DNA of 64,000 bases from Nanobdellota archaeon (GTDB lineage: Archaea > Nanobdellota > Nanobdellia > Pacearchaeales > GW2011-AR1). The position numbers and the translations under genes were made by a program. The notes beneath the pieces are model-generated. The model was not told the origin of the DNA and searched no databases. It saw only the letters and a list, made by a program, of their open reading frames with translations. Positions within the stretch are counted from its first letter, which is position 1, and every line of letters begins with the position of its first letter. Location of the stretch: positions 160,001 through 224,000 of the forward strand of contig JBBSXC010000004.1 of the NCBI GenBank assembly GCA_038045945.1, written 5' to 3'. Below are positions 5,841 to 33,222 of the stretch, one piece after another.

Positions 5841-5886
5841 GATTATTATATCCACAATTAGGATTATTTAAAATCTCGCAATTAGT

Positions 5887-8787: not shown

Positions 8788-8871
8788 TGCGGGATATAGG
8801 AATCGAACCTATGCAGGCACTAAGCCCCCGGCTTTTGAGACCGGTCCGTTTGACCGCTCCGGCAATCCCGC
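8788..8871 (-). tRNA. tRNA-Leu(CAA)
   Basis: Cloverleaf with long variable arm GGCTTAGTGCC; anticodon arm CCGGT-CTCAAAA-GCCGG. Confidence 0.95.
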
Positions 8872-13814: not shown

Positions 13815-14317
13815 TGGCCTGGACAAGAAAACACAAAAGATACTCAAGACCAAGAAAACCATTCGATAAGCAAAGAATAGAAGAAGAAAACAAAATAGCA
13901 GAAGAATTCGGACTAAAAAACAAGAGAGAAATATGGAAAGCAGAAGCAGCAGTAGGAAGACTGCGAAGAAGAGCAAAAAAACTAATAACAGCAAGCGCAG
14001 AAAAACAAGGAGAATTATTCAACAAACTAAAAGAAATGGGACTAAAAGTAACATCAATACCAGAGGTATTAGCATTACAAAAAAGCGACTGGATGCAAAG
14101 AAGACTACAAACAATAGTAATGAAGAAAAAATTAGCAAAAACACCAAAACAAGCAAGACAAATGATAGCACATAAATTAGTAATGATTGACGGAAACATA
14201 GTGAACCAACCATCATACATAGTAACAGTAGAAGAAGAAAACAAAATAAGCCTTAGAGAAGCAAAAGCAAAAAAGGAAACAAAAACACCAAAAGAAGAGG
14301 TAAAACAAAATGAGTAA
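13814..14317 (+). CDS. rps4: 30S ribosomal protein S4
   Basis: FGLKNKREIW, RRLQTIV, QARQMIAH. Confidence 0.97.
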   Translation: MAWTRKHKRYSRPRKPFDKQRIEEENKIAEEFGLKNKREIWKAEAAVGRLRRRAKKLITASAEKQGELFNKLKEMGLKVTSIPEVLALQKSDWMQRRLQTIVMKKKLAKTPKQARQMIAHKLVMIDGNIVNQPSYIVTVEEENKISLREAKAKKETKTPKEEVKQNE

Positions 14318-16828: not shown

Positions 16829-17668
16829 TTATTCAGACATTATTCTATCAAGTGGTGAACCAACTTTCTTTAACTGCTCACTAGAAACATGTGTGTATAT
16901 TTGAGTTGTCGATAAGTCACTATGACCTAATAATTCTTGTATTATTCTAATATCAACACCAGACTCTAAAAGATGAGTAGCAAAAGAGTGACGAAGAGTG
17001 TGACAATGAACACTCTTATTAATAAGAGCTCTAGCAGCAGTTTGCCGAACAATTTTTTGCAAGTTTTGGGAGGTAATAGAACCACCGCTCCTGCCGCTAA
17101 ATAAGAGTTCACTACCAGAAGAAGTTTGAAGAGCAACCTGTTTTTTTAGATCATTAACTAAATAATTAGGTATATTAAAAATTCTGTCCTTATTACCCTT
17201 AGCTTTCTTAATACGACCAATCTTTTCATCAAAGTGTAAACTACTACACTTAAGATTAATTAGTTCGGATATCCTCATACCCGACGCGTAAAGCAGACTA
17301 ATAATAAGCTTACTCTTAGGAGTTTTAGAATTAGCTATGAGCCGTAAAACTTCTTCTCTAGTTAAAACATCGGGAAGTTTCCTTTCCTTCTTAGGCCTCT
17401 TAATACCAACAGTAGGATCAACAGAAAAAACACTTGAGTAAGAAAACCTTATAGCAGCCAAAAAAAGAATTACTGAACTACCAGACTTATCAGAATAATT
17501 CTCAGACAAAAAAAGTTTTATGTCATCAAGACTTATATCCTTAGGATCTTTATTAGAAAAATCTAATAATTCCCTATTAGCAGATAAATAATTCCTTATA
17601 GTGTATGGACTATTCTTAGAAATTTTTAGTTCTACCTCGACTTTTTTAAGAAAATCCTCTTTATTCAT
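16829..17668 (-). CDS. xerA: XerA/XerD-like tyrosine recombinase
   Basis: SGMRISE (catalytic R), KGNKDR, HTLRHSFATH, LGH...TTQIY; 279 aa with SAM-like N-terminal domain. Confidence 0.9.
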   Translation of the reverse strand: MNKEDFLKKVEVELKISKNSPYTIRNYLSANRELLDFSNKDPKDISLDDIKLFLSENYSDKSGSSVILFLAAIRFSYSSVFSVDPTVGIKRPKKERKLPDVLTREEVLRLIANSKTPKSKLIISLLYASGMRISELINLKCSSLHFDEKIGRIKKAKGNKDRIFNIPNYLVNDLKKQVALQTSSGSELLFSGRSGGSITSQNLQKIVRQTAARALINKSVHCHTLRHSFATHLLESGVDIRIIQELLGHSDLSTTQIYTHVSSEQLKKVGSPLDRIMSE

Positions 17669-17715
17669 AAGACAGATTGTACAAACTCGTTTATAATTCT
17701 ATCTTAGGGAAAAAA

Positions 17716-18531
17716 TTATTTTTTCCCACCAAGAGGTATCTCAAAACCTATCGACAACATCGAACCATCTGACAGGTCAGCATAAGTAAAACTTTGAGAC
17801 TTTGACAGGTAAGCCAAGTAATTATTGCTGTTAACCTCATTACCAGTTATCTCAGATAATGAATTATTATCTAATCTTAAAAAAAACTTTACTGGAACAC
17901 CACCGATCATTCTCTTTTTAGTGCTTAACTCCCCACCAATATTGTTTATGCCATCAGGGCCACCACTAAGATGAAGGCTATACTTTAATTTTTTAAGACC
18001 ATCATAACCAACAACATCTCCAAGGTCCCCTTTACCATAATTTTTTACTTTGTGGGTTACACCATAATAAAAGTCAGCTATCCCTGAAAGCCCTGGAAGA
18101 ATACTATCAGCCATTAACCTTATAGCCACTTCTTTTGATTCGCTAGAACCCGGCTGCTCCCCCTCACCCAAGTGCTGTGTTGCCTCATCAGACACCCTTC
18201 TTGCCCTAGAAGCATCTATTTTACTTGGAAGGTTATTGTTGTAATCAGAAACAGACAAACTTGCTGAGCTTACAATAAAACAGTTAGCTAGCAAAGGATT
18301 ATCACCAGGATTATAATTTATCATCTCATAATTGTCTCCTTCCCCAGATTTTTCATCTTTACGCTCTTTAGGCTTGCTATTAAGACTATCTGAAAGCTCC
18401 CCCATCATCGCTTTTGTTTGCCTTTGTTCTGTCAACTCATAATAAACGTTTTTAACATCCCCTGTGGATATACAGCTTGCTCCAGACAAGGATAGTAACG
18501 TTAGCAGTGAAGGCATAATTTTTCTCTTCAT
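17716..18531 (-). CDS. Hypothetical lipoprotein-like protein
   Basis: MKRK + hydrophobic stretch + LSGASC lipobox-like motif; no recognised family. Confidence 0.55.
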   Translation of the reverse strand: MKRKIMPSLLTLLSLSGASCISTGDVKNVYYELTEQRQTKAMMGELSDSLNSKPKERKDEKSGEGDNYEMINYNPGDNPLLANCFIVSSASLSVSDYNNNLPSKIDASRARRVSDEATQHLGEGEQPGSSESKEVAIRLMADSILPGLSGIADFYYGVTHKVKNYGKGDLGDVVGYDGLKKLKYSLHLSGGPDGINNIGGELSTKKRMIGGVPVKFFLRLDNNSLSEITGNEVNSNNYLAYLSKSQSFTYADLSDGSMLSIGFEIPLGGKK

Positions 18532-18630
18532 CCTTTCGGATTAATATTCCCTAGTATTAAAACCTTATTGACTGATGACTGGTAACAGATTAACCTTTTA
18601 TATAACTTGTAGCTTTTAACATTTACCTAA

Positions 18631-18702
18631 GGGCTTATAGTATAGTGGCTAGTACGCATCGTTCGCAACGATGAGACTCGAGTTCAATTCTCGATAAGTC
18701 CA
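18631..18702 (+). tRNA. tRNA-Ala(CGC)
   Basis: GGGCTTA/TAAGTCC acceptor stem with G3:U70; anticodon arm CATCG-TTCGCAA-CGATG. Confidence 0.95.
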
Positions 18703-18709
18703 TAAATTT

Positions 18710-19015
18710 TTATCCAGTTGAAAGGCGAGGCGATGTATGATTCCTCTCGCTAGAATATTTTGTTGCCTCTTCTTCAAGATCACTCATAAGAACAACCCTG
18801 CCCTCAGTTATATTAATCAGTTCTATTAAGCATACATCGGACCCAGGATTTTCTATTTCCAACCTTTTAGACCCTAGAGGACACTTATTTTTTGATGCGT
18901 CTATATCGCTTCCAGCTACAAATTCCAAGTATTTTGGAACCCTCTCATCACCACTAATCAATAAATAATTAGCCCTGTAGAAATCCAAAACACGATGCAT
19001 CGGAATAGCCATCAC
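18710..19015 (-). CDS. Hypothetical protein
   Basis: ORF filling the gap with TATA-like TTTATA upstream on minus strand; no family recognised. Confidence 0.45.
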   Translation of the reverse strand: MMAIPMHRVLDFYRANYLLISGDERVPKYLEFVAGSDIDASKNKCPLGSKRLEIENPGSDVCLIELINITEGRVVLMSDLEEEATKYSSERNHTSPRLSTG

Positions 19016-19087
19016 TTAATGTAACAAACAATGCATATAAATTTTCCTAAAGAAAAGCTTTAAATGGTTATTAGAGGTAGTTTCATT

Positions 19088-20863
19088 ATGAGTAAAGAAG
19101 TTAAGAATGATAAGAAATATTTAGACGACTTAAGACATAGTTGTGCTCATTTATTAGCAGCAGCAGTTTTAGAATTATATCCTGATGCGAAAAGAACTAT
19201 TGGCCCACCAATTGAAGAGGGATTCTATTTCGATTTTGATTTTGGACAGACAACAATAAAGGAAGAAGACTTGCCAAAAATCGAGAAGAAAATGGGAGAA
19301 ATCCTTAAAGGTTGGAAGTCTTTCGAAAAAAAAGAAGTAACACCAGCAGAAGCAAAAAAAGAATACAAGAATAACGAGTACAAAATTGAACTAATAGATG
19401 AATTCTCAAAAGACTCTAAAAAATTAACATTTTACAAAAGTGGAAACTACACAGACCTTTGTAAAGGAGGACACGTAGATAATCCGTCAAAAGAAATTGT
19501 TGCTTTCAAACTCCTAAAAATCGCTGGGGCGTACTGGAGAGGTAATGAAAAAAATAAGATGCTAACAAGAATTTATGGTACTTGTTTTGGAAGCCAAAAA
19601 GAATTAGAAGAATACGTTAATAGGTTATCAGAAGCAGAAAAAAGAGACCATAGAAAAATAGGCAAAGAATTAGGACTCTTCACATTTTCGGAACATATCG
19701 GAAGCGGGCTACCACTGTACACACCAGACGGGGCATCGATCAGACTAGCAATCACTAACTATGTAGAGTCAATGCAAACAGCTAAAGACTACACACAGGT
19801 ATGGACTCCACAAATAGCTAAAGCCAAACTTTTTCAAATATCAGGACATTATGATAAGTACAAAGACTCAATGTTTAGAGTAGTAAGCAATTATTCTAAT
19901 GAAGAATTCTTCCTAAAACCAATGAACTGTCCGCAACATACACAAATATACGCATCAGAACCACACAGCTACAGAGACTTACCATTAAGATTCGCAGATT
20001 TCGCAATGCTTTACAGAGACGAAAAACCAGGAGAACTAAGCGGATTATCAAGAGTTAGAGCATTCTCACAAGATGACTGTCACATATTCTGCACAGAAGA
20101 ACAAGTTGACGAAGAAATAGACAAAGCATTAGAAATGACTAAAGAAATAATGAAGACGTTCGGACTAAAATACAAGTACAGATTATCAACAAGAGACCTT
20201 AGTCAGCCAGAGAAATATTTAGGAGAACCAAAAACTTGGGACAAAGTAGAAAAATGGGCTGAGAAAATAATGAAAAGAAACAAGATAGAATACTTCGACG
20301 GTCCGGGAGAGGCAGCATTCTACGCACCTAAAATGGACTTAATAGCTACAGATGCATTAGGAAGAGAATGGCAACTATCAACAATACAAATAGACTTTGT
20401 TATGCCAGAAAGATTCAAACTAGAATACGCAGCACAAGATGGAACTGTAAAAAGGCCAGTGATGCTCCACAGAGCAATAGTAGGTTCCCCAGAGAGGTTC
20501 ATGATGATACTAATAGAACACTTCGCAGGATCATTCCCAGTATGGCTTTCACCAACACAAATAATAGTTTTACCAATAAGCGAGAAGTTTAATAGTTCAG
20601 CAGAAAAAACTAAAGAGAAACTAAAAGCACTAATGCCAGGAATAAAAGTTAAGATTGATTCAGCTAACGAATCACTACAAAAGAAAATTAGAAATGCGCA
20701 ACTAAAAAAGATCCCTTACATGCTAGTTGTCGGAGAAAGAGAAGAAAAAGCAGGAACAGCTGCCGTACGTTTAAGAACAGGAGAACAATTAGGAGAACTA
20801 AAACTTGAAAAAATAGCAGAAAGAGTTAAAGAAAAAATATCTAGCAAGAGTCTTGAATTATAA
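19088..20863 (+). CDS. thrS: Threonine--tRNA ligase, bacterial type
   Basis: RHSCAHLL and DLCKGGH editing motifs, RDHRKIG, KPMNCP, RVRAFSQDD, WQLSTIQ, HRA..GS.ER. Confidence 0.96.
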   Translation: MSKEVKNDKKYLDDLRHSCAHLLAAAVLELYPDAKRTIGPPIEEGFYFDFDFGQTTIKEEDLPKIEKKMGEILKGWKSFEKKEVTPAEAKKEYKNNEYKIELIDEFSKDSKKLTFYKSGNYTDLCKGGHVDNPSKEIVAFKLLKIAGAYWRGNEKNKMLTRIYGTCFGSQKELEEYVNRLSEAEKRDHRKIGKELGLFTFSEHIGSGLPLYTPDGASIRLAITNYVESMQTAKDYTQVWTPQIAKAKLFQISGHYDKYKDSMFRVVSNYSNEEFFLKPMNCPQHTQIYASEPHSYRDLPLRFADFAMLYRDEKPGELSGLSRVRAFSQDDCHIFCTEEQVDEEIDKALEMTKEIMKTFGLKYKYRLSTRDLSQPEKYLGEPKTWDKVEKWAEKIMKRNKIEYFDGPGEAAFYAPKMDLIATDALGREWQLSTIQIDFVMPERFKLEYAAQDGTVKRPVMLHRAIVGSPERFMMILIEHFAGSFPVWLSPTQIIVLPISEKFNSSAEKTKEKLKALMPGIKVKIDSANESLQKKIRNAQLKKIPYMLVVGEREEKAGTAAVRLRTGEQLGELKLEKIAERVKEKISSKSLEL

Positions 20864-20897
20864 TAAAACTTAAAAGCATTGAAAGACCCATAACAAC

Positions 20898-21146
20898 ATG
20901 AAAAATTATGAAAGTAATTGTGGCAAAGTAACGAAAAAACCTGCGGTAAGAGATGTTCAACCAGGAAGCATGATTACGCCAGAACAGTTTTATTGTGCTC
21001 ATGCAACAGGAAATTATTTAGATGAAGGAAGTATAAGATGCAATATAGATGACTCTCGATGCCCCATTTATGACAAGTTAGCCGAAGTTATAAGATCCGA
21101 GAGAAGATTACCAAAATGGGCGGGTAATTTGGAAGAAGTAGCATAA
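20898..21146 (+). CDS. Hypothetical small Cys-containing protein
   Basis: ORF with upstream TTAAAA box; four cysteines; no family recognised. Confidence 0.5.
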   Translation: MKNYESNCGKVTKKPAVRDVQPGSMITPEQFYCAHATGNYLDEGSIRCNIDDSRCPIYDKLAEVIRSERRLPKWAGNLEEVA

Positions 21147-21152
21147 AAATAA

Positions 21153-22130
21153 TTATTCACTTTCTAACTCTATACCTCTCAAAAAGTAAAATCCGTAAAC
21201 AAACAACAAAGCTAGTGAGATGAAGGGGTGAAGAATCCAGGCAAGGTCAGGCTTTCTAAAAAATCCAGCAGTTGAGTCTTTTATGGGCAAAATGATTGTT
21301 ATTATGTATAATCCTAAGAGTAACATTTTTGATTTACTAACACCGTAAGTTGAGTATCTTCCTATTTCCATGTTGCTTCTTCTTTTAACACGTCTAAGCT
21401 TCTTACGGAAAAAAGTCTTAAGACTACCATCTTGTTTGTGAACAATTCCTTGTTTAACTTTAGCAATATGATCATAACCTAAGTTTACTAAGTCTCTAAG
21501 AAAGACTGTGTGGTTTAAAGGATTATTTTTTACTTTGTAGAACAATTCTTTGCGAAAGAAGAATCCGTTTGATCCGCCAGCAGGAACAAAACCCTTCTTG
21601 TAAACAACCTCATAATAATCCCCCTTATCAGCGATTGATTTTTTGTTTCCTACAATTTTACCGTTAAAGTAGCACATTCGGTCATTTGCGCCCAGATAAC
21701 TTGCTATCGGGTCGTCACCACCAATGAGGGCATTATAACGAGTGATTATGTCATCGCCTTTCCTAACCTCAAAATATAACGTATCAGAAAAAGAAATTTT
21801 TTTATCATTAAATGGAGTTACCATTTTTTTAAGCCAACCCTTATCACTTGGTAAAAAGTTATCTGCATCAATAAAACCGATTATTTCTCCTTTAGCGTAC
21901 TTAGTTATTGCTAAGGGTTTTGCTTTTTCTTCTATACGGCCAGGATTCTTTATTAGTTTAAATTGAGGGTACTTCTTGATAATTTTTATTGTTGAGTCTG
22001 TTGATCCACCATCAGCAATTATTACTTGAAAAAGTTTCTTGGGATAATCTTGGTTAGCTATTGATTTTAAACATTCGTTAAGTGTTGACTCATTATTATA
22101 CGTTGGTAGCACAATAGTTACAGACTTCAT
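21153..22130 (-). CDS. GT2 glycosyltransferase with C-terminal TM helices
   Basis: IVLPTYN, DGGSTDST, FIDAD. Confidence 0.88.
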   Translation of the reverse strand: MKSVTIVLPTYNNESTLNECLKSIANQDYPKKLFQVIIADGGSTDSTIKIIKKYPQFKLIKNPGRIEEKAKPLAITKYAKGEIIGFIDADNFLPSDKGWLKKMVTPFNDKKISFSDTLYFEVRKGDDIITRYNALIGGDDPIASYLGANDRMCYFNGKIVGNKKSIADKGDYYEVVYKKGFVPAGGSNGFFFRKELFYKVKNNPLNHTVFLRDLVNLGYDHIAKVKQGIVHKQDGSLKTFFRKKLRRVKRRSNMEIGRYSTYGVSKSKMLLLGLYIITIILPIKDSTAGFFRKPDLAWILHPFISLALLFVYGFYFLRGIELESE

Positions 22131-22186
22131 AAAATCGTAATGATCACAGAAGTTTATAAATTAATTCTTCTTCTTAAAGAAAATAA

Positions 22187-22831
22187 TTATTTCTTGTACA
22201 AACTTCTCTTAAACTTAGGATAAACAATAGACCAGGTAGTAAACAAGATAATAATTAATAATGAAGCACCAATTAATTGGTATTTGAAATCTAAAGAACC
22301 AATATAAGAAATTAGTAAGGCATGAGGGATAATACTAATCGCTGTGGCTAATGCATACTCACTAAAGGGAATCTTACTAAATAAACCAAAGGCGTAAGAA
22401 AGAATATCAAGAGGGAGTAAAATTCTTATTACCACAATACTCCAAAAACGATTCTTGTTAGAAATAAGAGATTCTAAACGTTTAACCTCCATAACCGGAG
22501 CAAAACGGGCGACAACGCGAGAACCAAACTTACGAGCAATAATAAAAGCTAATAAAGCCCCAGCAAACCAACCAATAAAAGTAAGAACAGAAGCTAAAGG
22601 CCAGCCCCATAGGTTAGAAGCAAGAGGAATAAGGGGAAAAGTGTTAATTGGAGCGAATAGTGAAGCAAGAAATTCTATAACAGCATAAGTAACCATGCTA
22701 GAAACATTATCGCCCAAATACCCTTCAAAAAAAGAAATATTTTTCTGAATAAAATAAGAAGAAACTAAAAAGATTATGATAACCAGAACCAAAGAATATA
22801 TCGTTTTAGCGTCACTCTTACTAATCTTCAT
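22187..22831 (-). CDS. VTT/DedA (TVP38/TMEM64) family membrane protein
   Basis: GALLAFIIARKFG, RIL.P.D.LSY..G pattern. Confidence 0.85.
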   Translation of the reverse strand: MKISKSDAKTIYSLVLVIIIFLVSSYFIQKNISFFEGYLGDNVSSMVTYAVIEFLASLFAPINTFPLIPLASNLWGWPLASVLTFIGWFAGALLAFIIARKFGSRVVARFAPVMEVKRLESLISNKNRFWSIVVIRILLPLDILSYAFGLFSKIPFSEYALATAISIIPHALLISYIGSLDFKYQLIGASLLIIILFTTWSIVYPKFKRSLYKK

Positions 22832-22949
22832 AATATTATGATGAAAAATGAACTAAATATACTTAGCTGTATAAAAAAAGACTAACTGGAAGCAACATTA
22901 AAAACCATAAACGTTATATAGCGATAAGGGACTTGATAAAAAATGAACA

Positions 22950-23693
22950 ATGGTTGAAGAACTAATAAAAAACTTTGATAAATTGTTAACAGATAACCAA
23001 ACGATTGTCATGTCTGTTAGTTGCATAGTCGAGTATAGCGGTAGAGCCGAAAGCGAACTGGAAAAAGGAGATAGAATAATAATCATAAAGTCAGATAACG
23101 CACTCCTAGTTCATCAGCCTGCTGGCAACAACCCTGTTAACCATATGAGAAGTGGAGGAAAACACAAAATAGTAACATCAGACTTGGACGAAGGAGAAAA
23201 ATTCCGGATTATTAGCGAACACACAAAACACAAAGAACACCTAAAAATAAAAGTTTTTGACCTATACTTCTACAAATCACAAAAACTCACAGATAACGAA
23301 CAAATAATGACTAAAGGAACAGAGTTTGATATGAGTGAAATGCTATACACCAACCCTAAAATGATAAGTGATGATTTCAAACCATTAAGTCGAGAAGAAC
23401 ACACAAAGTACGGATTCATTGACGTATTCGGCTACGATAAAAACAACAAACTAATAATTGTTGAGTGTAAAAGAACAAAAGCAGACCTTCACGCAGTCAC
23501 TCAACTAAGACGTTACGTAGAAAAAATCAAAGAAAACAAAGGAGTAACAAACGTTGGAGGAATTGTCGCAAGCCCAGAAATAAGTGATAACGCTAAAAAA
23601 ATGCTTGAAGACTGGGGATTCACATGGAAACAAATAAGCCCACCAAGAAACAAAGAAGAAAGAGACAAGAAGCAACAAAAACTAGGGTTCTAG
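22950..23693 (+). CDS. nucS: Mismatch-specific endonuclease NucS/EndoMS
   Basis: Y.GRA.S.L..GDRIIIIK.D...LVH, G.ID....D......VE.KR, QL.RY. Confidence 0.95.
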   Translation: MVEELIKNFDKLLTDNQTIVMSVSCIVEYSGRAESELEKGDRIIIIKSDNALLVHQPAGNNPVNHMRSGGKHKIVTSDLDEGEKFRIISEHTKHKEHLKIKVFDLYFYKSQKLTDNEQIMTKGTEFDMSEMLYTNPKMISDDFKPLSREEHTKYGFIDVFGYDKNNKLIIVECKRTKADLHAVTQLRRYVEKIKENKGVTNVGGIVASPEISDNAKKMLEDWGFTWKQISPPRNKEERDKKQQKLGF

Positions 23694-23707
23694 CTTGTAC
23701 AAACTCT

Positions 23708-24493
23708 CTATTTTATCATGTCACTAAAACTCTTGTGAACTAAGTTACCTTTTCCGTCATCAACATATTTTTCTTTCACTAAGTGATCACAAAGCACTTT
23801 AGGGTTGCAAAAAGGAACAAAACCAGCATTAAATGCTTGGTCAATAAAGAAACGGTCATCATCAGCGCCGCCATTACTACTAAACTTACCGTAACGAAGA
23901 TCTAAAAAAACATCACGAGAAATAAGCATACAACCAGCAGAAGGAAGATTAACCTCCAGAACAGCACCAGAATCAATCTCTTCAGGAGTAATATGTCTAC
24001 GCAAATCGCTACGAGAAAGAGAAGAATAAGAAGGAATTTTTTGCAATTCAGAAAATTCTTCAACAGTTAAGAGTTTCCAAGCAACAGGAAGCCACTTCTT
24101 TTGACCAGAAACAACAAAAAAATTGTAATACAAACCACTAACAATATCCTTATCACAAGCAAGAAGTTCTTGAATAACATTCTTAGGAGGGATGACATCG
24201 CTATCAAGCATCAAAACATGAGAATAATCCTTAGCAATAGCATACTCAAGAATCAAGTTACGACTACTAATAAGACGAAAAACAGACTTTTCTTCATCAC
24301 TATGATCATGAATAACAGTAATATCCCAAATTTTTCGGAGTTCATTAAAATAATCAAGATTACGAGAATTATCAACAATTAAGACATCATACCCAGGATA
24401 ATCAAGACTTTTAATCCTATCAAAAAATTCTTTTTCACAATATTTCATACCATCAAAAGTAGGAGCAGCAACCAAGACCTTAGGACGAATCAT
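23708..24493 (-). CDS. GT2-like glycosyltransferase
   Basis: LIVDNS, SRN, LMLDSDV, IVSGLY, AGCMLISR, DD..F. Confidence 0.8.
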   Translation of the reverse strand: MIRPKVLVAAPTFDGMKYCEKEFFDRIKSLDYPGYDVLIVDNSRNLDYFNELRKIWDITVIHDHSDEEKSVFRLISSRNLILEYAIAKDYSHVLMLDSDVIPPKNVIQELLACDKDIVSGLYYNFFVVSGQKKWLPVAWKLLTVEEFSELQKIPSYSSLSRSDLRRHITPEEIDSGAVLEVNLPSAGCMLISRDVFLDLRYGKFSSNGGADDDRFFIDQAFNAGFVPFCNPKVLCDHLVKEKYVDDGKGNLVHKSFSDMIK

Positions 24494-24548
24494 AAGAATA
24501 AGTAGCAAGAAGAAGTTTTTAAGAATATGGAATGTACAAACTCATCGA

Positions 24549-25067
24549 TTAGCCTTTAGAAGTAGGGGTGTCATCAACCTTTTCAGAAAAATTTTTTGTT
24601 ATAATTTCAGGTAGTCTATATCCAGCCTTTTCAAGATTATTTCTAACCTCTTTATAGAATTGTAAATTGTGAATCATGGCATGACAGTTAGGACAAAGAG
24701 GAGCAAAGTTTGAGGGATCATTATTCTTATGATTTAAATCTAAGTGATGAAGATGAACAACCTTAGTAAAACCACAAGAAGCACAGACTTTAGTTCTTTC
24801 GAGATACTCCCTATAATCCAAATTAAATTCTCTTTTAACCTTTCTAACCTTCTCGTATTCTAATCTAAAAATAGTATTATAACAGCCACCACAATACCCC
24901 TTTCCTTTCTGAGGCAAAGTTCTTTCACACCTCAAACACCTAATTTTAGGCTCATCCCACAATAATTTTTAGTAGCACCACTTACAAATATTTTTCTCAA
25001 GTCTTTTATTAAAACCTAGGTCATTCTTAGTTTTATTACAATTTTCACAAACACCCACTTTAGACAT
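24549..25067 (-). pseudogene. Zn-finger HNH endonuclease with in-frame TAA
   Basis: From ATG 25067: MSKVGVCENC...ICKWCY*KLLWDEPKIRCLRC...CGGC...CASCG...HLHHLDLNHKNN...LCPNCH; TAA at 24969-24971 is in frame with the ORF-track fragment 24549..24962. Confidence 0.75.
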
Positions 25068-25075
25068 AAAGTTGT

Positions 25076-25112
25076 TAGGTACCTAGAATATATAAATCTT
25101 TTGGTACCTAAA
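25076..25112. promoter_or_regulatory. Paired palindromic operators in divergent HNH/AbrB promoter
   Basis: TAGGTACCTA (25076-25085) and TTGGTACCTA (25101-25110) interleaved with TATA-like boxes. Confidence 0.55.
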
Positions 25113-25143
25113 GGTTTTAATATAGCGAACGCATTACTTAACT

Positions 25144-25320
25144 GTGAAACTACAAAAACAAAAGACAGGAGAAGGAGACAGAGGACCCTATTACAAGTAC
25201 GTATTAGTATTACCTCAAGTCAAGATCGAATCGGCAGGATTCAAAGAAGGAGAAGAATTAGAAGCAGAAGTAAAGGGTAACCAAATAATAATAAAAAAAT
25301 TAGAAAAGAAAACTAATTGA
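25144..25320 (+). CDS. AbrB/MazE/SpoVT-family DNA-binding protein (58 aa)
   Basis: Not in ORF track. GTG start: MKLQKQKTGEGDRGPYYKYVLVLPQVKIESAGFKEGEELEAEVKGNQIIIKKLEKKTN; LP....E..G...G.EL.......I.I pattern. Confidence 0.8.
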   Translation: MKLQKQKTGEGDRGPYYKYVLVLPQVKIESAGFKEGEELEAEVKGNQIIIKKLEKKTN

Positions 25321-25373
25321 TTGTACAAACTCATTAAAAGGAAAGGTTTTTTAGCAAGAGACTAGTAAGATAG

Positions 25374-25718
25374 ATGATGGACAAAGTTAATGATTGGGGT
25401 TTTGACTTCTGGTTGCACTTGATAATAATAACCGCTTTTTGGGTTTCGCCATTATTCTTGAGTTGGTGGATAATACTTATAATGACAGGAGGATATTATC
25501 TTCAACTGTTGATTTTTGGAGATTGTATACTAAGCAAAAAACAGTTTAGGACCAAGAAGAGAAGCGTAACATTTTATTGGTATTACGGAAGGAAGTTATT
25601 TCCCGAGCTAGACATGATGAAAGTGAGGTTTTGTGCAGATTGGGTGTTCCCATACATAATTTTAGGGGTAGCAATAATTACACAGACTATTTTTGGGTAC
25701 AGACCACTAATTTTTTGA
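25374..25718 (+). CDS. Small membrane protein (DUF2784-like)
   Basis: Three hydrophobic segments, FWLH...FGDCIL motif; atypical codon use. Confidence 0.6.
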   Translation: MMDKVNDWGFDFWLHLIIITAFWVSPLFLSWWIILIMTGGYYLQLLIFGDCILSKKQFRTKKRSVTFYWYYGRKLFPELDMMKVRFCADWVFPYIILGVAIITQTIFGYRPLIF

Positions 25719-25740
25719 CCTTAGTATATAATAAGACGTA

Positions 25741-26162
25741 TGCAAGAAGTTTTAAGCGAAGATTGAAGGTTTTAGCACGACTAAAGGTTTAAAAGACAAG
25801 AAAGCTATTAAGAGATATGAAAGAGAGAAGTAAACTGATATTAGGATTTATAGGGCTATTCTCAATAACAGGGATAACTGCGTTCTTAACAAAGCAGGGT
25901 ATAGAAGCCCTAGTAATGATAAAAGACACCCTAAACCACGCATTGTAAGGCTAATTCTTAAAAGGCCAGGTAATTCTAACCAAAATAATGAAAATAGGCC
26001 CATAAAGAGGGCTTTTAGGCACCTAAAAAGGCTGCCCAATGTACCTTGTGCAAACTTATGAGGAGATTTTAGGCATATTTTAAGGATTTTTAGACAAATT
26101 TTTCTAATTTCCAATAAAAACTATGCTTGCAGGAAGTTTTAAGCAAAGATTAAAAGATTTAG
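25741..26162 (+). repeat. Imperfect 35-bp direct repeat pair (25741-25775, 26128-26162)
   Basis: TGCAAGAAGTTTTAAGCGAAGATTGAAGGTTTTAG vs TGCAGGAAGTTTTAAGCAAAGATTAAAAGATTTAG, 30/35 identical by manual alignment. Confidence 0.7.
25817..25948 (+). CDS. Small single-TM protein (43 aa)
   Basis: Not in ORF track. MKERSKLILGFIGLFSITGITAFLTKQGIEALVMIKDTLNHAL; TTTAAAA about 25 bp upstream. Confidence 0.5.
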   Translation: MKERSKLILGFIGLFSITGITAFLTKQGIEALVMIKDTLNHAL

Positions 26163-26476
26163 AAAGGAAATTTTAGTCGTTTTTCTTGAATAAAGTTAAG
26201 GGTTTGAGAAGCAGATGAATCAAAATATCCGCCTTGCAAAGAGCCAAGAAGATCTGACCCAACACCATAGTCAATTGTAAAAAATCTAAAGGCACCCTCA
26301 ACAGCAGGTTGAAATTTATCCCTTGGAGAACTAATGGAAGATAAATCGTCAATAGAAGATTGTACAAACCTGCGCAAAATCACCTGTTCAGACAGAGTAA
26401 GGTCAAGACCAAGATAACATAGAATCATCTTGCGAGATAAGATAAATTCATCCTGAACATCATAAGCTCCAACCAT
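26159..26476 (-). CDS. Hypothetical protein
   Basis: ORF with T/G-ending codons typical of minus-strand genes here; no family recognised. Confidence 0.5.
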   Translation of the reverse strand: MVGAYDVQDEFILSRKMILCYLGLDLTLSEQVILRRFVQSSIDDLSSISSPRDKFQPAVEGAFRFFTIDYGVGSDLLGSLQGGYFDSSASQTLNFIQEKRLKFPF

Positions 26477-26635
26477 GAAAAGTAAACTAAAGCAAGCCTA
26501 TTAATAGTTTACTAATCCTAAAACTCCCAGTTACGAGACCTAAAACACACTTTTCCTCACGCAAAAAGATTCAATCTAAAACTAAAACTTCTTGCGAAAG
26601 CTAATAAAGAAAAATTAAAGAAAAAATGTCCCAAA

Positions 26636-26773
26636 TTAAGGAACGAAGCTAAGAATTCCAGCAATGATTAGGTAAACTCCAACAGCCCACCTTAAAAGAC
26701 CAGGCACAGCTAGGACTAAAATACCCACCAATATAGCTAAAATTCCTGAAATTGTTAAACCAATAGATGCCAT
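26636..26773 (-). CDS. DUF3096-like small membrane protein (45 aa)
   Basis: Not in ORF track. MASIGLTISGILAILVGILVLAVPGLLRWAVGVYLIIAGILSFVP; SD GGAGGT upstream. Confidence 0.8.
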   Translation of the reverse strand: MASIGLTISGILAILVGILVLAVPGLLRWAVGVYLIIAGILSFVP

Positions 26774-26889
26774 TTTTTTTGACCTCCAAGAAACAAAAAG
26801 CCAAGAACCAATAAAAAACTAAGTAGTATATTTCTCGACTAAAAACCCTAAAATCGTAAAAATAAAAATAAAAGAATGTTAGAGGGTAA

Positions 26890-27030
26890 CTAGTTCCCCA
26901 AGAAACTAATAAGCCCTATAGCAATCAAGTAAAGGCCAAGAGCCCACCTGAGAAGCTTAGGAACAAAGATAACCAGAAGACCAGCAACGATAGCCAGAAT
27001 TCCAGAGATTGCAAGACTAATAGCAACCAT
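26890..27030 (-). CDS. DUF3096-like small membrane protein (46 aa), paralog
   Basis: Not in ORF track. MVAISLAISGILAIVAGLLVIFVPKLLRWALGLYLIAIGLISFLGN; shares ISGILAI..G...P.LLRWA.G.YLI..G. Confidence 0.8.
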   Translation of the reverse strand: MVAISLAISGILAIVAGLLVIFVPKLLRWALGLYLIAIGLISFLGN

Positions 27031-27031
27031 C

Positions 27032-27211
27032 TTATTTATACGAATAATTCCTAACTAGCTTACTAACACCAATAGCTAAGAACGAAAGAGCAACGACCCA
27101 ATCAACCCATAGAGCTGTAAAGACACTAAGGGCAGAAGAAAGGTAAGCACCCATTCTTAACGTTAATAAAAGTCCAATAAGTGTAACGAGCCAAGCAGTA
27201 AGTTTTGCCAT
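27032..27211 (-). CDS. Small two-TM protein (59 aa)
   Basis: Not in ORF track. MAKLTAWLVTLIGLLL...WVVALSFLAIGVSKLVRNYSYK; GGGGG SD; stop 1 nt before the next ATG. Confidence 0.7.
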   Translation of the reverse strand: MAKLTAWLVTLIGLLLTLRMGAYLSSALSVFTALWVDWVVALSFLAIGVSKLVRNYSYK

Positions 27212-27385
27212 AATTATAACCCCCTTTAGAAAATAGAAAGGAAACGAAATTATATAAACCTATCGTGAAAGGGTAAAGATATGACGATAAAGTATGAGAA
27301 ATCCATTAAAACGAAGATGGCCAAAAGATTAAAAATTACTAACGCAAACTACCTAAAAATTTAACAACATCTGCAAGACCTATCG

Positions 27386-27492
27386 AGGCTGTTTAAGGGT
27401 GTTTAGAGGTGTTTAAACAGCTGTTTGTTGGAATAAAATACAGTTTAGAGGTGTTTAAACAGCTGTTTGTTGGATTCATTCCAACAGATAAT
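27386..27492. repeat. Non-coding iteron-like repeat hub
   Basis: TGTTTA at 27390/27400/27410 (10-bp phase); exact 32-bp direct repeat GTTTAGAGGTGTTTAAACAGCTGTTTGTTGGA at 27401-27432 and 27443-27474; inverted repeat TGTTGGA-N5-TCCAACA at 27468-27486. Confidence 0.9.
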
Positions 27493-27611: not shown

Positions 27612-28235
27612 ATGTTTGATTGGATTTTTGGAAAGAAAAAAGAGGTAGAAAAGGTTAGGACAGACACAAAGAAAGCCTTTGAAGGGGTAAAGGAAGATAT
27701 AAGCAGCATTTCTAAATGGCTTGAACACCTTAAACAGGCAGACGAACAAGGAAAAAAGCGTTTTGATGATATAGATGAGAGATTATCCTCGATAGAATCA
27801 GACTTAAACACTATAAAAAATTTTGCGCTAGGTGGAAAAAACAAACAGCCGTTTAAACAGCAAACAGCTGTTCAAGGCAAACAAACAGTTGTTTATGGTG
27901 TTCAAACAGGTGTTCAAACAGGTGTTCAAACAGGTGAAAGTAGCGAATTATTGGTAAGGAACTTATCAGTTATGGAAAGGGCATTAGTATATGTTTTAAT
28001 GAATAGTGAAATGAAACTGAGCTATGATGACCTGGGAGCGATGCTTGGAAAGACGAGAGCAACTATCAGAGGCCAAATAAACAGCATAAAGCAGAAAAGT
28101 GAGGGAGTATTAGAGGAGATTATAGAGAAAAATGGTAAAAAAAGAGTGTTTATACCTGAGGAAGTAAAGGAAATACTGCTCAAAGACGCAAAAGTGAGAG
28201 TTAAGAAGGACAAAAAAGAGAAGAAAAATGAGTAA
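27612..28235 (+). CDS. Coiled-coil / repeat linker / winged-helix DNA-binding protein (gene A)
   Basis: N-terminal heptads; linker KQTAVQ...GVQTGVQTGVQTG; C-terminal LSVMERALVYVL...LSYDDLGAMLGKTRATIRGQINSIK helix-turn-helix plus wing. Confidence 0.75.
   Translation: MFDWIFGKKKEVEKVRTDTKKAFEGVKEDISSISKWLEHLKQADEQGKKRFDDIDERLSSIESDLNTIKNFALGGKNKQPFKQQTAVQGKQTVVYGVQTGVQTGVQTGESSELLVRNLSVMERALVYVLMNSEMKLSYDDLGAMLGKTRATIRGQINSIKQKSEGVLEEIIEKNGKKRVFIPEEVKEILLKDAKVRVKKDKKEKKNE
27840..27936 (+). repeat. Intragenic repeats in gene A
   Basis: AACAAACAGCCGTTTAAACA (19/20 to reverse complement of hub repeat core), AAACAGCTGTT, AAACAGTTGTTT, then GGTGTTCAAACA x3.3 (27897-27936). Confidence 0.9.
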
Positions 28236-28505: not shown

Positions 28506-29333
28506 TTAGAGCTCAATAAGCTTTAAAATGGTGTCTAAGGTAGCTATCTTTTTGAGATCTGGAGATATCCTGAGAATAACTTTCTTATTATTTATCTTTT
28601 CTTTGTCTATGGGTATACCTTTAGCGACGATCTTCCCTATATAGTCCCTTATAGAGCTCTCAGAAAGACCTAATCTTACGGCTATAAGCCTATAATCCGC
28701 ATCTTCGCCCTTTTCCTCCAAGGAATAGAGTAAAGAGAAGACTTGAAACTCCATTGGTGTTAATTGTTTAAACTTGCGCCTAATTTCCTTCTTAATACCG
28801 TCGAGAGTGTCAAGAACCCTCAAGGCTTCATCAAAGTCGTTTGCTTTACTAGTTTGAGAGTTAAGAGAGTATGAAGAGGGTAAAACCAGGCTGGGATTGT
28901 CTGTTGGTCTGTCTGTTGGTCTGTCTGTTGGAACCCCCCTATTTCCACTGGAAATAGCCATATTTTGACCTTTTAGAGCCTCTAAAGAGGGCATATGTGT
29001 TGGAGTTTGTGGTTGAAATGTTGCATTTTGAAGGTTATCTGTTGGATTATGTGTTGGAACGACTGCTACAGGGGGCAAAGGGGCTGTTTTTGCTTCTTGA
29101 GAAACGTTTTTCATCTCTTTTATTGCGCGATCTATTGACTCACTAATGCTTTTTTCAGTGTGGTCTAACTTTTCAGAGAATAATTCTTTTATGTGAGCTA
29201 TAGAAAAAGCTATTTTATCATCAGTTGATATCCTTAAAGAGTTAATCTCTGCGTTTAGTGCGTAAAATTCTTTTGACAGTTGGGTAATATCATCTCTTAC
29301 TTTATCAAACGCCTCTTTGATTCTCGGATCCAT
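28506..29333 (-). CDS. Coiled-coil / repeat linker / winged-helix DNA-binding protein (gene B)
   Basis: N-terminal heptads (EAFDKVRDDI, cf. gene A KAFEGVKEDI); linker ISSGNRGVPTDRPTDRPTD; C-terminal LTPMEFQVFSLLY...DYRLIAVRLGLSESSIRDYIGKIVAKG HTH plus wing. Confidence 0.8.
   Translation of the reverse strand: MDPRIKEAFDKVRDDITQLSKEFYALNAEINSLRISTDDKIAFSIAHIKELFSEKLDHTEKSISESIDRAIKEMKNVSQEAKTAPLPPVAVVPTHNPTDNLQNATFQPQTPTHMPSLEALKGQNMAISSGNRGVPTDRPTDRPTDNPSLVLPSSYSLNSQTSKANDFDEALRVLDTLDGIKKEIRRKFKQLTPMEFQVFSLLYSLEEKGEDADYRLIAVRLGLSESSIRDYIGKIVAKGIPIDKEKINNKKVILRISPDLKKIATLDTILKLIEL
28898..28931 (-). repeat. 12-bp tandem repeat inside gene B
   Basis: TGTCTGTTGGTC x2.8 on + strand; further TGTTGGA copies at 28995-29004, 29035-29046, 29047-29058. 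Confidence 0.9.
28934..28957 (-). promoter_or_regulatory. ORB-like element with G-string inside gene B
   Basis: Minus strand CTATTTCCAGTGGAAATAGGGGGG: 9-bp perfect dyad containing TTCCAGTGGAAA followed by G6. Confidence 0.7.
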
Positions 29334-29387: not shown

Positions 29388-29660
29388 TTATGAAGAAACA
29401 TTCTTGTAAGCTTTATGGGCTTTAGACGTCAGCGACCACCTTATTCTACGTATATACACATCACCGTCTGAATTCTTTCTTATCGGTCTCACTAAACCCT
29501 TATTTTCAAGCTCGATTAGCAAGGACTTAATAAACTCTTCATCTCTAGCTTCTTCACGACTTATCTGAGCAGTAAACATCGCTTGAGGATATTTGTGGAA
29601 CAACAACGAAAGAATGTTAGACATAATCTTATCCCTCTTTTCTTTAGAAAGCTTACTCAT
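29388..29660 (-). CDS. Small winged-helix protein (gene C)
   Basis: From ATG 29660 MSKLSKEKRDKIMSNILSLL...FTAQISREEARDEEFIKSLLIELENKGLV...RRIRWSL. Confidence 0.7.
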   Translation of the reverse strand: MSKLSKEKRDKIMSNILSLLFHKYPQAMFTAQISREEARDEEFIKSLLIELENKGLVRPIRKNSDGDVYIRRIRWSLTSKAHKAYKNVSS

Positions 29661-29730
29661 AAAAAGAAGAAAGAATGGGGTATTTTTATACCTTGTGATA
29701 AGAAAAAGACAAATACTTAGCAAAAAATTA

Positions 29731-30246
29731 TTATTCTCTCTTATTAATAACCAAGCCAAGGGTGTTAGAGACCTTCTGGGCTAACTGTCCCCCAGATTCG
29801 GAGAACTTCCAATAAAATAGAACGGGCTTTTCATTTGTTCGCACCATGAATTTTCTTAGTGAAGAGATACTAGCCTTGAGAGCTAAGCCCTTACCTCTAA
29901 AAGGTCCCTTAATTACTGCAACACACATGTAAACAGAATCGTAACTTATACGACTACTTTTTATCAGTTCAAGAAGCTCAGATTCTGTAATAAAATTATT
30001 ACAGAACCGTTCCATGAGTTCTAATGAGCAAGGAAACATATTTACACAACCAATAACTACCCCATCACTCTTAATAATATTAAAAAGTTCAGGAGCATTC
30101 TTTGAAGACCAACTGTCTTTTCCAGGATGAGTCTGAGCTTGATAAGGGTCAGCAGCAGTATTAAAGTACTCTTTGATAAGTGACCGGGCGGAGTCCTGAT
30201 CTTTTATAGAAAGAGCATCATTAGAATCCGAAGAGAAAGTGATCAT
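29731..30246 (-). CDS. Hypothetical protein, GNAT-like
   Basis: VYMCVAVIKGPFRGKGLA resembles the acetyl-CoA-binding motif A. Confidence 0.5.
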   Translation of the reverse strand: MITFSSDSNDALSIKDQDSARSLIKEYFNTAADPYQAQTHPGKDSWSSKNAPELFNIIKSDGVVIGCVNMFPCSLELMERFCNNFITESELLELIKSSRISYDSVYMCVAVIKGPFRGKGLALKASISSLRKFMVRTNEKPVLFYWKFSESGGQLAQKVSNTLGLVINKRE

Positions 30247-31923: not shown

Positions 31924-31992
31924 TATAGTGCTTTTAAGTATCTAAAGTTTTATAAAAGAAATAAAATGATAATATTATAGGTGATAAAAAAG

Positions 31993-33222
31993 ATGGTTGA
32001 AGAACAAAAAGTAGAAGGAAAAATTAACTCAATATTTGACTCATTTACAAAAGAAAGCATATTCAAAAACAAGAGCTTTCTACAAATAAAACATCTGCCT
32101 GAAGATATACTCCATCGAGACGAACAATTACAACAAGTCGCTAGTATCCTAGCACCCGCACTTAGAGGTGAAAGAACAAGTAACCTATTCGTTTATGGAC
32201 AAACAGGCACAGGAAAGACTATTTGCGTCAAGTATATCAGAGACCAATTACTAAAAAAAGCTCAAAGCACAGGAGCACCACTAAGAATTGAATATCTTAA
32301 CTGTAAACTAAAAAAGGTTGCTGATACAGAATACAGGATTTTAGCAGAACTAATAAAAAAATTAGGAGGAGAAGTACCATCAACAGGCCTACCCACAGAC
32401 CAGGTCTATAATAAATTCATTGAGATAATAGAATCAAAAAAACAAACATTCCTACTAATACTTGATGAAATAGACCAAGCGGTTAAAAAGATCTCAAGCG
32501 ACTTCCTATATAACCTAACACGTCTCAACTCAGAACTAGAACAAACAACCGTAAGCATAATAGGTATAAGCAATGACCTAAAATTCTTAGACCTAATCGA
32601 TCCAAGAGTAAGAAGCAGCTTATCAGAAGAAGAAATAATCTTTGCACCTTACAATGCACTACAATTACAAGACATACTAAAACAAAGAGCTGACTCATCA
32701 TTCAAACCAGGAGTACTAAAAGAAGGAGTAATCGCTAAATGCGCAGCTTACGCCGCAAGAGAACACGGAGACGCAAGAAGAGCATTAGACCTATTAAGAA
32801 TATCAGGAGAAATAGCTGAAAGGATGACAGAAGGAACAATAGAAATCAAACACATCGATATGGCAAACGAAAAAATTGATAGGGATAAAATATTAGATAT
32901 AATATCAGCAGCACCAAAACAATTCCAAATAGTATTATTAGCATCAATTGACCTAATAAGCAAAAATAAAGAACAAAACACAAAAATCTTCACTGGAGAT
33001 ATATACTCATTATACCAGGACTTATGTTCTAAGAGCAGAAACGAGATACTAACACAAAGGAGGGTTAGCGACCTAATAGGAGAATTTGATATGTTAGGAC
33101 TAATAAACGCAAGAGTTGTAAGCAACGGAAGACATGGAAGAACAAGAGAAATAAAACTCCTTATACCAGACCAAATATTACCGAGAGCTAGAGAAATAAT
33201 ACAAAATAATTTGAACTTCTAA
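31993..33222 (+). CDS. cdc6: Orc1/Cdc6 replication initiator
   Basis: Walker A GQTGTGKT, Walker B LILDEID, DPRVRSSL, GDARRALDLLR, C-terminal wH; SD AGGTGA before ATG 31993. Confidence 0.97.
   Translation: MVEEQKVEGKINSIFDSFTKESIFKNKSFLQIKHLPEDILHRDEQLQQVASILAPALRGERTSNLFVYGQTGTGKTICVKYIRDQLLKKAQSTGAPLRIEYLNCKLKKVADTEYRILAELIKKLGGEVPSTGLPTDQVYNKFIEIIESKKQTFLLILDEIDQAVKKISSDFLYNLTRLNSELEQTTVSIIGISNDLKFLDLIDPRVRSSLSEEEIIFAPYNALQLQDILKQRADSSFKPGVLKEGVIAKCAAYAAREHGDARRALDLLRISGEIAERMTEGTIEIKHIDMANEKIDRDKILDIISAAPKQFQIVLLASIDLISKNKEQNTKIFTGDIYSLYQDLCSKSRNEILTQRRVSDLIGEFDMLGLINARVVSNGRHGRTREIKLLIPDQILPRAREIIQNNLNF

Follow-up and report, generated by a model that had tools for sequence, protein, structure and literature searches.

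A cluster of probable XerA arm sequences between xerA and dif, at the borders of small gene modules, in a Nanobdellota archaeon

Why should one short, polar sequence recur on a single strand between the gene for a Xer-family tyrosine recombinase and a group of winged helix-turn-helix (wHTH) protein genes? The question arises from the 10-mer TGTACAAACT in a 9-kb stretch of the genome of a Nanobdellota archaeon, within a 64,000-nucleotide window (contig C4, positions 160001-224000, hereafter the window) of an assembly of 847,022 bases in 7 contigs that is 93% complete (G000 in our comparisons). We find that the copies are of three kinds, namely, a dif-like site over the promoter of xerA, the chromosomal dif itself, and four or five strong arms without a recognizable partner at the borders of small gene modules (Table 1). 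With a probability that we put at roughly one half, the island between xerA and dif grew by XerA-mediated insertion, at dif, of modules that have no recombinase of their own, which would make it an archaeal counterpart of the bacterial integrative mobile elements exploiting Xer (IMEX) and dif modules.

The window holds five exact copies of the 10-mer (at 17678, 22195, 23696, 24533, and 25322), every one on the plus strand, and two variants on the same strand, TGTGCAAACT at 26047 and TGTACAAACC at 26361. The original prediction, made from the letters of the window, had these coordinates, strands, and variants right, together with its descriptions of the genes and its placement of the copies mostly at gene boundaries, as a motif scan, the open reading frames (ORFs), and Pfam confirm; the longer form that it saw in four of the five copies is TGTACAAACTC. 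It had expected far less than one copy per window, in agreement with the 0.17 copies given by dinucleotide shuffles of the window, among which five copies were reached in 0 of 100. The genome-wide scan of both strands that it proposed returned no exact copy outside the window, and the motif is not evenly spread. With one mismatch allowed, the window has 11 matches against 5.47 expected, a number reached in 6 of 100 shuffles and only weakly above chance. The pattern TGT[AG]CAAAC occurs 13 times in the genome, 7 of them inside this stretch and all on the plus strand, the remaining 6 being divided equally between the strands (3 and 3); 6 of the 22 exact genomic matches to the family arm pattern GTTYGYAYAA are also found here. 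The shared orientation (7/7, about 1 in 64 by chance) is weaker evidence taken alone. The genome-wide copy count is unremarkable because composition alone predicts a few copies per genome, and relatives have 0 to 5 copies each, about the same as for a control word. The signal is the clustering of the 10-mer, not its count, and the clustering is far beyond chance. Rfam and tRNA scans found tRNA-Leu and tRNA-Ala alone, with no RNA family over the motif.

To judge from sequence and position, this Pacearchaeota-type lineage has a dif site whose strong arm, 11 bp long and reading TTGTACAAACT (AGTTTGTACAA on the opposite strand), has the 10-mer at its core. Two inverted 11-bp arms around a 6-bp spacer are the layout of dif in bacteria and archaea (PMC2958812; PMC8371274; PMC5357621). 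The closest metagenomic relative, a contig (L078) with the same gene order and with XerA and the wHTH protein wHTH207 71% and 74% identical to those studied here, has a perfect pair, GTTTGTACAA-GGTACA-TTGTACAAAC (20/20 positions), at the place orthologous to dif, and carries TTGTACAAAC again in its xerA promoter. Given this paired site and the recurrence of its arm at xerA, the 10-mer is very probably the optimal XerA arm of the genus. At the orthologous place, another genome of the same genus (G001) has GTATGCACAA-TAAACC-TTGTGCAAAC (19/20 positions). A scan of the whole G000 genome for two arms separated by 6 bp ranks site 6 first (19/22 positions, with a weak left arm), so the supposed variant at 26047 is the right arm of the real dif. 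This is the one good full site found in the 93% complete assembly, the xerA promoter site being a second, weaker one. Its position and its right flank correspond to those of the orthologous dif in G001 and of the perfect dif in L078, and, as in relatives, it lies close upstream of wHTH207 (1.6 kb).

Across the family, arm-6 bp-arm sites of the pattern GTTYGYACAA-N6-TTGTRCRAAC occupy this same conserved neighborhood, among them a pair without mismatch in G017, GTTCGCACAA-GATACA-TTGTGCGAAC, and GTTCGTACAA-GATATA-TTGTGCGAAG in G045. These paired sites are flanked on the outside by A-tracts and stand 0.8 to 2.7 kb upstream of a wHTH207 homolog, which is followed by homologs of wHTH275 and of the HTH_69 protein. 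Fifteen of 32 distinct full-site matches with at most 3 mismatches share a contig with the orthologous xerA and are no more than 21 kb away from it. Matches to wHTH207 were present in 23 of 57 relative loci of one database, and the 80 metagenome loci used below were all retrieved through wHTH207. We take the arms to resemble the bacterial dif consensus as well. Three exact full-site matches in viral contigs were set aside, as these contigs (GC, 0.41 to 0.63) encode no homolog of a window protein and so are not linkable to this lineage.

The recombinase itself is a housekeeping ortholog encoded by a single-copy gene (one match in the genome at E ≤ 1e-30). It aligns over its full length to the XerA proteins of Pyrococcus abyssi (4a8e; 3.7e-39) and Thermoplasma acidophilum (5hxy), and its catalytic motifs R, K, HxxR, H, and Y all align with those of both. 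In site 1, the weak arm includes the xerA start codon, read as CAT at 17666-17668, and the strong arm (17677-17687) adjoins a TATA-like box (~17690-17696), the 10-mer copy being 9 nucleotides (nt) upstream of the ATG. This arrangement is conserved: 28 of 30 family loci have a sense-oriented arm at most 1.1 kb upstream of the xerA transcription unit, whose first gene is either xerA or a HAD-like gene preceding it, and in 19 of 30 xerA loci the ATG follows the arm by exactly 8 nt. The layout in relatives is a TATA-like box, 3 to 4 nt, [A/G]GTTCG[C/T]ACAA, ~8 nt, and ATG, and the AGTTTGTACAA of G000 holds the same position; some relatives also have the same arm 10-mer as an inverted pair with a 6-bp spacer, slightly farther upstream. 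The fixed distance of 8 nt would be explained if 6 nt are the spacer and the start region mimics a weak second arm, and in many relatives the start region reads TT-ATG-AAA-AA on the sense strand. We infer that XerA binds at this place and, as the interval between TATA box and start codon is where an archaeal repressor would sit, that it probably represses its own gene via site 1.

The remaining strong arms divide the stretch between an 82-residue ORF (hyp82) and dif into four units, modules A to D. Sites 2 to 5 are 1 to 6 nt from stop codons or, at site 2, within the last five codons of the VTT-domain gene, and modules A and C have internal promoter regions and 3' ends toward the arms. Sites 1 and 5 have 14 identical bases in common and sites 3 and 4 share 13 of 14. 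Identity of this length exceeds the 10 to 11 positions conserved in the family, and it suggests that each of these pairs arose by copying. Site 5 sits, directly past the AbrB-like gene, where two relatives (L124 and L092) have dif itself; their AbrB-like genes end 18 to 37 nt before dif, and that of G000 ends 1 nt before site 5. With AbrB ending at site 5 and the conserved flank of dif lying to the right of site 6, module D has the appearance of having been inserted where AbrB and dif ancestrally met. No homolog of its membrane protein is present in any of the relative loci compared.

The island differs from one close relative to the next. From xerA toward the wHTH genes, the order is XerA, a secreted-looking protein of 271 residues, tRNA-Ala, threonyl-tRNA synthetase (ThrRS), hyp82, GT2, VTT, NucS, GT266, HNH, AbrB/MazE-like, the 114-residue membrane protein, and two wHTH proteins. 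The genes xerA, tRNA-Ala, ThrRS, and hyp82 are syntenic in G001 and L078, and the right flank of dif is conserved; the interval from hyp82 to dif is made up of different, unrelated genes in the three, over 4.9 kb (G000), 4.7 kb (G001), and 1.1 kb (L078), and the 4.9-kb island of G000 is absent from both congeners. Since the difference extends over the entire interval, this comparison yields no end points for individual modules. Among 26 genomes, all the relatives being metagenome-assembled genomes (MAGs) in which absence means not found in those searched, NucS is present in G000 alone, GT266 in four, and VTT in six (G000 included in each count), and neither GT266 nor VTT was found in G001, which is 79% complete. 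The VTT protein does not align to its homologs past residue ~200.

Table 1. Sites, modules, and genes of the xerA-dif region (positions in the window)
Feature	Position	Strand	Description	Basis
xerA	16829..17668	-	279 aa; Xer-family tyrosine recombinase	Pfam Phage_integrase, 4.1e-44
Site 1, dif-like	17660..17687	+	Over xerA promoter and start; weak arm TTTATTCATAA, spacer GACAGA, strong arm TTGTACAAACT	
VTT-domain gene	22187-22831	-		Pfam
Site 2, strong arm	22194..22204	+	TTGTACAAACT; overlaps last VTT codons (S-L-Y); partner arm not recognizable	
Module A	22205..23694		1.5 kb; VTT-domain gene and NucS, divergent pair	Pfam
NucS	22950-23693	+		Pfam
Site 3, strong arm	23695..23705	+	Fills 14-nt gap between convergent NucS and GT266 stops	
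Module B	23706..24531		0.83 kb; GT266 alone, TATA-like stretch inside	Pfam
GT266 glycosyltransferase	23708-24508	-		Pfam
Site 4, strong arm	24532..24542	+	ATGTACAAACT; 6 nt past HNH stop	
Module C	24543..25320		0.78 kb; HNH and AbrB/MazE-like, divergent pair	
HNH nuclease gene	24549-24962	-		Pfam, 19.0 bits (under Pfam cut-off of 21.4)
AbrB/MazE-like gene	25144-25320	+		Pfam
Site 5, strong arm	25321..25331	+	1 nt past AbrB stop	
Module D	25332..26028		0.7 kb; membrane protein gene and possible 43-aa ORF, between AbrB-side arm and dif	
Membrane protein gene	25374-25718	+	114 aa	ORF
Site 6, chromosomal dif	26029..26056	+	Weak left arm AGGCTGCCCAA, spacer TGTACC, strong right arm TTGTGCAAACT	
Site 7, candidate arm variant	26360..26370	+	TTGTACAAACC; within unconserved ORF 26159-26476 (-)	
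wHTH207	27612-28235	+	Conserved dif neighbor	Pfam
wHTH275	28506-29333	-	Conserved dif neighbor	Pfam
HTH_69 protein	29388-29759	-	Conserved dif neighbor	Pfam
Orc1/Cdc6	31981-33222			

How might such an array have come about? According to the insertion reading, modules would enter as small circles without their own recombinase, each with a dif-like site that has one good arm, and the XerA of the host would recombine each circle with dif. Every insertion would leave a hybrid site keeping one strong arm, so that repeated insertions would build a head-to-tail array of co-oriented strong arms, and the poor partner arms and unlike spacers would then lock the modules in place. Action of XerA on one-armed sites is conceivable, since the P. 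abyssi enzyme, the only XerA for which arm binding and cleavage at the borders of the spacer are shown, cleaves half-site substrates in the experiments described (PMC3646895). Arrangements of a similar kind occur in relatives. G064 has an array of its own arm, GTTCGTTTAA, with eight copies in the genome, six of which surround dif in a span of 8.7 kb. In L153, 2.4 kb of toxin-antitoxin-like genes (MazF/MazE and PIN/AbrB, as judged from N-terminal sequences) lie between two directly repeated full dif-like sites, and in L098 such a pair of sites encloses a single 131-residue ORF, ending 4 nt before dif.

A number of observations weigh against insertion. No partner arm can be recognized at sites 2, 3, 5, and 7, and the six spacers are unlike each other and unlike the spacer of dif, which would hinder ordinary two-step Xer recombination with the present dif. 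HNH and AbrB genes are habitual neighbors of dif in relatives (HNH homologs start ~100 to 160 nt from it), so module C fits poorly as imported cargo. The left edge of the island, beside hyp82, has no site. Lone co-oriented strong arms occur inside intact wHTH275 homologs of relatives, and a lone arm therefore need not be a scar. Arrays like that of G000 are rare: of the 26 loci where dif is assigned with confidence, G064 alone has more than one extra exact arm. Extra arms do not exceed the background (~12 hits with two mismatches in every 10 kb) in the variable intervals of G001 and L078, so variability beside dif does not need Xer. An arm accompanies the GT266 and VTT homologs in 0 of 6 relative loci, and no exact arm is near the GT266 relatives, ~50% identical, of two MAGs. 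The third-codon-position GC content and codon usage of the island genes are within the range of the genome, without compositional oddity. The full-site pattern with at most 3 mismatches occurs in 24 of 61 genomes against 22 of 61 for a reversed control, and the case for dif rests accordingly on low-mismatch matches and location. A one-mismatch arm at position 8827 of G001, at the left edge of its variable interval, was dismissed, having no partner and lying inside an unrelated hairpin repeat.

Excision was also looked for, as the original prediction had suggested searching for reads across excised circles. The stretch is present in four groundwater metagenome runs of one study, two of which may be the source of the assembly, and the check was made in their Logan contigs, which drop rare variants and thus make it a weak test. 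In these contigs, no excision or alternative junction was seen: contigs from two samples are unbroken over 15001/15545-27430, 0 of the 11 listed joints is at the motif, and no back-joint at any arm points to a circular or excised form, rare forms being invisible in such data. Within the same limits, the sampled populations show no variation in the island.

Other functions of the arms would also be compatible with much of this pattern. They might be working half-sites to which XerA binds, repressing or insulating the tightly packed units of the island as roadblocks, an account that we hold to be possible but doubtful. The conservation of the promoter arm across the family suggests that single strong arms are used for regulation; moreover, all five exact copies are perfectly kept, sites 2, 4, and 5 are 63, ~24 to 40, and 43 nt upstream of the next gene start, and lone co-oriented arms are found away from any such island, within wHTH275 homologs and 17 nt past the wHTH207 stop in L119 and L126. 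Site 3, however, lies between convergent stops with no promoter to control, a point already made in the original prediction against a simple operator and one that stands. The geometry of TATA box, arm, and ATG is present at site 1 alone, with sites 2 and 4 upstream of any TATA-like box; general roadblocks would be expected elsewhere, yet there is no copy outside the stretch; and identity over 13 to 14 nt, beyond the family arm, fits copying better than convergent selection. It is improbable, in our estimation, that the arms are instead polar architectural elements of the dif region, either accessory XerA sites that favor resolution without FtsK or barriers and boundaries. Exact arms in the 80 metagenome loci, oriented by wHTH207, number 50 against 15 by orientation (the loci are related, not independent), all 7 arms of G000 have the majority orientation, and in every case the promoter arm repeats the strong arm of dif in direct orientation; archaea are described as lacking FtsK in the available text of a review (PMC8371274), and dif is reported as a chromosome-domain boundary in Thermococcus kodakarensis, in the part of that study at hand (PMC11840125). 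Against this, the arms span 8.7 kb, too far for a topological filter of the cer/psi type, the arms are missing from congeners whose XerA and dif are the same, and site 7, across dif, is not inverted, contrary to what a fork trap or KOPS-like elements would predict.

The arms might alternatively be bound by a protein of the neighborhood (wHTH207, wHTH275, the HTH_69 protein, or the AbrB-like protein), the inverted pair then being an operator or centromere-like site and not dif, for which we see little chance. The trio of wHTH genes is linked to the inverted pair as tightly as is xerA, and wHTH207 has a faint match to a ParB helix-turn-helix domain (E, 0.003; 18.1 bits against a cut-off of 22.6); the pair nevertheless has the exact 11+6+11 layout of dif, an arm is on the xerA promoter in 28 of 30 loci, and the wHTH genes come with a repeat of another kind, TGTTTAAACAG, which precedes wHTH207 and, in G066 and G059, also precedes xerA. 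The suggestion that the copies are fork-arrest or parS-like sites for the wHTH proteins thus gained no support. An integron-type array, in which xerA would stand for IntI, site 1 for attI, and the remaining copies for attC, is an interpretation that we reject. It has in its favor that the recombinase gene diverges from an array of same-orientation sites starting at its promoter and that IntI4 is the top PDB sequence match (2.8e-40), but this match is split in two, the IntI-specific insertion (IntI4 residues ~186 to 245) being missing from XerA. The seven 90-nt site contexts fold no better than shuffles (z, -1.66 to +1.06), so there are no attC hairpins; the genes point both ways and are served by promoter regions of their own; tRNA-Ala and ThrRS, essential and syntenic in congeners, would make up the first "cassette"; and xerA is a single housekeeping ortholog. 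Of the proposal in the original prediction that the copies are XerA recombination sites, what carries over is an arm of dif, a dif within the span, and the module borders; the integron-like form does not, nor does the pattern of the Acinetobacter dif modules with their alternating sites, and active recombination at the copies is a proposal.

Returning to insertion at dif, how does the locus compare with known systems? The core is of a known kind: as in the archaeal XerA/dif systems of P. abyssi, T. acidophilum, and Sulfolobus (PMC2958812; PMC3646895), there is a single Xer recombinase with a site of two inverted ~11-bp arms and a 6-bp spacer, and in some archaea the two, xerA and dif, reportedly form one module (PMC5357621, as far as its available text goes). 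In contrast to those systems, dif is here beside three wHTH genes and often HNH, the xerA promoter carries a second dif-like site, and there are extra strong arms. The bacterial IMEX for which comparison was possible in the accessible portion of the literature (TLC-phi, CTX-phi, and VGJ-phi of Vibrio cholerae and the gonococcal island GGI of Neisseria; PMC5357621) likewise have no recombinase of their own and stand head to tail beside dif, with junction sites of one well-kept and one divergent arm, as described for TLC-phi and GGI, and with dif retained beside a conserved flank. The present modules differ in being 0.7 to 1.5 kb long, with one or two ordinary genes and no phage or conjugation genes, in having spacers not homologous to that of dif and a single recombinase for both arms, and in being known from sequence alone. 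The island genes lack a recombinase, as Pfam finds no integrase or transposase domain in them, and as to direct dif-like borders, the strong arms are direct repeats and the array ends at dif, with no recognizable partners at sites 2, 3, and 5 and no site at the left edge.

In Acinetobacter, modules are flanked by pdif sites of alternating orientation, a pattern with which the C and D module types described for that genus are consistent. The modules, as portrayed in the parts of two reports that were available, are small, with one to a few genes, include toxin-antitoxin genes, are bounded by Xer sites, and are shuffled among replicons (PMC6449649; PMC13141974). Here, by contrast, all 7 arms are on one strand, as half-sites in a chromosomal array beside the main dif. 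The locus is similar to integrons in that a tyrosine recombinase gene faces an array of short sites separating small gene units, and differs in that its recombinase lacks the IntI insertion, its sites form no hairpins of the attC type, its genes are oriented both ways, and its first interval contains essential genes that are syntenic. We therefore describe the locus as a candidate IMEX-like or dif-module-like array in an archaeon.

Several further features of the region and of its relatives were recorded. The dif of G000 is only ~6 kb from the Orc1/Cdc6 gene, as it is in L078 (6044-6069 and 11895-13121, respectively), and is not opposite a presumed origin. An element of ~35 nt (TGCA[A/G]GAAGTTTTAAGC...) occurs three times around dif, at 25741-25775, at 26128-26162 (direct), and at 26549-26595 (inverted); the copy ~70 nt right of dif is kept beside dif in G001 and L078, and the element may be an accessory binding site. 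Origin of module D by tandem duplication of the dif flank was considered and dropped, being backed by this element alone, with an alignment score of 57 within the shuffle range (maximum, 58). The interval between dif and wHTH207 looks at first like a 1.9-kb noncoding gap; it holds three small hydrophobic ORFs (~50 to 60 residues) at 26600-27220 on the minus strand, and similar small membrane ORFs are present in relatives. Upstream of wHTH207, a 32-nt direct repeat with TGTTTAAACAG at its core is at 27401-27432 and 27443-27474, and repeats of this core alone stand before xerA in G066 and G059 (L037 and L043). The element is a likely operator of a wHTH protein and would link the wHTH genes to the control of xerA. 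The repeat TGTTCAAACA, to which the motif had been likened in the original prediction, is a coding repeat (GVQT, three times) inside wHTH207; its three units are at 27899-27932, a place at which contigs from related populations are broken or variable, with loose ends at 27879 and 27932.

Among relatives, full dif-like sites form mutually inverted pairs 4.0 to 4.3 kb apart in L060 (G024:C1:192586 and 196617) and L071 (G074:C38:37920 and 42196). The G024 pair is distant from xerA, one of the G074 sites is the dif of that genome, and both pairs are candidates for XerA-driven inversion. The arms within intact wHTH275 homologs are in a variable linker (L066:8808, with L066:97; L065:5043; L065:5249; L070:2157), such an arm in G020 and a second copy at a distance of 8.7 kb have an 18-nt stretch in common, and 7 of 75 metagenome loci have a co-oriented arm 1.0 to 1.5 kb past the wHTH207 start. 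A conserved composite of strong arm, 6 nt, weak arm, and TTCGC...CGAACG precedes the start of HNH homologs by ~100 to 160 nt in L031, L066, L070, L071, L106, L107, L111, and L133/L134. In G001 (L019, G001:C34), a tnpA-tnpB pair of the IS200/IS605 type is between xerA and tRNA-Ala (reverse complement, 4591-6157), and a 14-nt unit is repeated seven times beside small membrane protein genes (L019 reverse complement, 14200-14297).

The only function known for Xer/dif in archaea, which lack FtsK, is to resolve chromosome dimers. In the published literature that we searched, by title or abstract, there was nothing on archaeal IMEX or dif modules and nothing on XerA in DPANN archaea; the word IMEX is absent from the available text of a 2021 review of archaeal tyrosine recombinases (PMC8371274), and a 2026 haloarchaeal paper, in the portion accessible, suspects XerA-driven mobility of large plasmids and found no Xer sites. 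Nor did the literature searched, as far as its text was available, describe the dif consensus of this family, the neighborhood of xerA, dif, HNH, and three wHTH genes, the dif-like site at the xerA promoter, or the array of arms at module borders; the closeness of Orc1/Cdc6 to dif is likewise unreported there for archaea.

For a large family of uncultured DPANN archaea, the locus supplies a dif site and an arm consensus that can be put to the test, and the conserved dif-like site on the xerA promoter and start codon is a simple candidate for autoregulation. With its defined half-sites and four tiny modules, it is also a concrete candidate for Xer-mediated gene acquisition in Archaea. A bolder picture, which we regard as tentative and on the whole unlikely, is that the housekeeping XerA of these DPANN archaea doubles as a gene-capture enzyme for which one strong arm suffices: circular modules would be inserted beside dif, probably by one-strand exchange, the xerA-dif interval would serve as a chromosomal platform for cassettes, the dif-like site on the xerA promoter would let XerA keep its own expression down, and the HNH and AbrB-like proteins would be accessory factors. 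If the gene-capture reading is true, it would be the first description from Archaea of a system of gene modules that exploit Xer; if the arms are regulatory or architectural instead, they would still represent a new use of a recombinase half-site.

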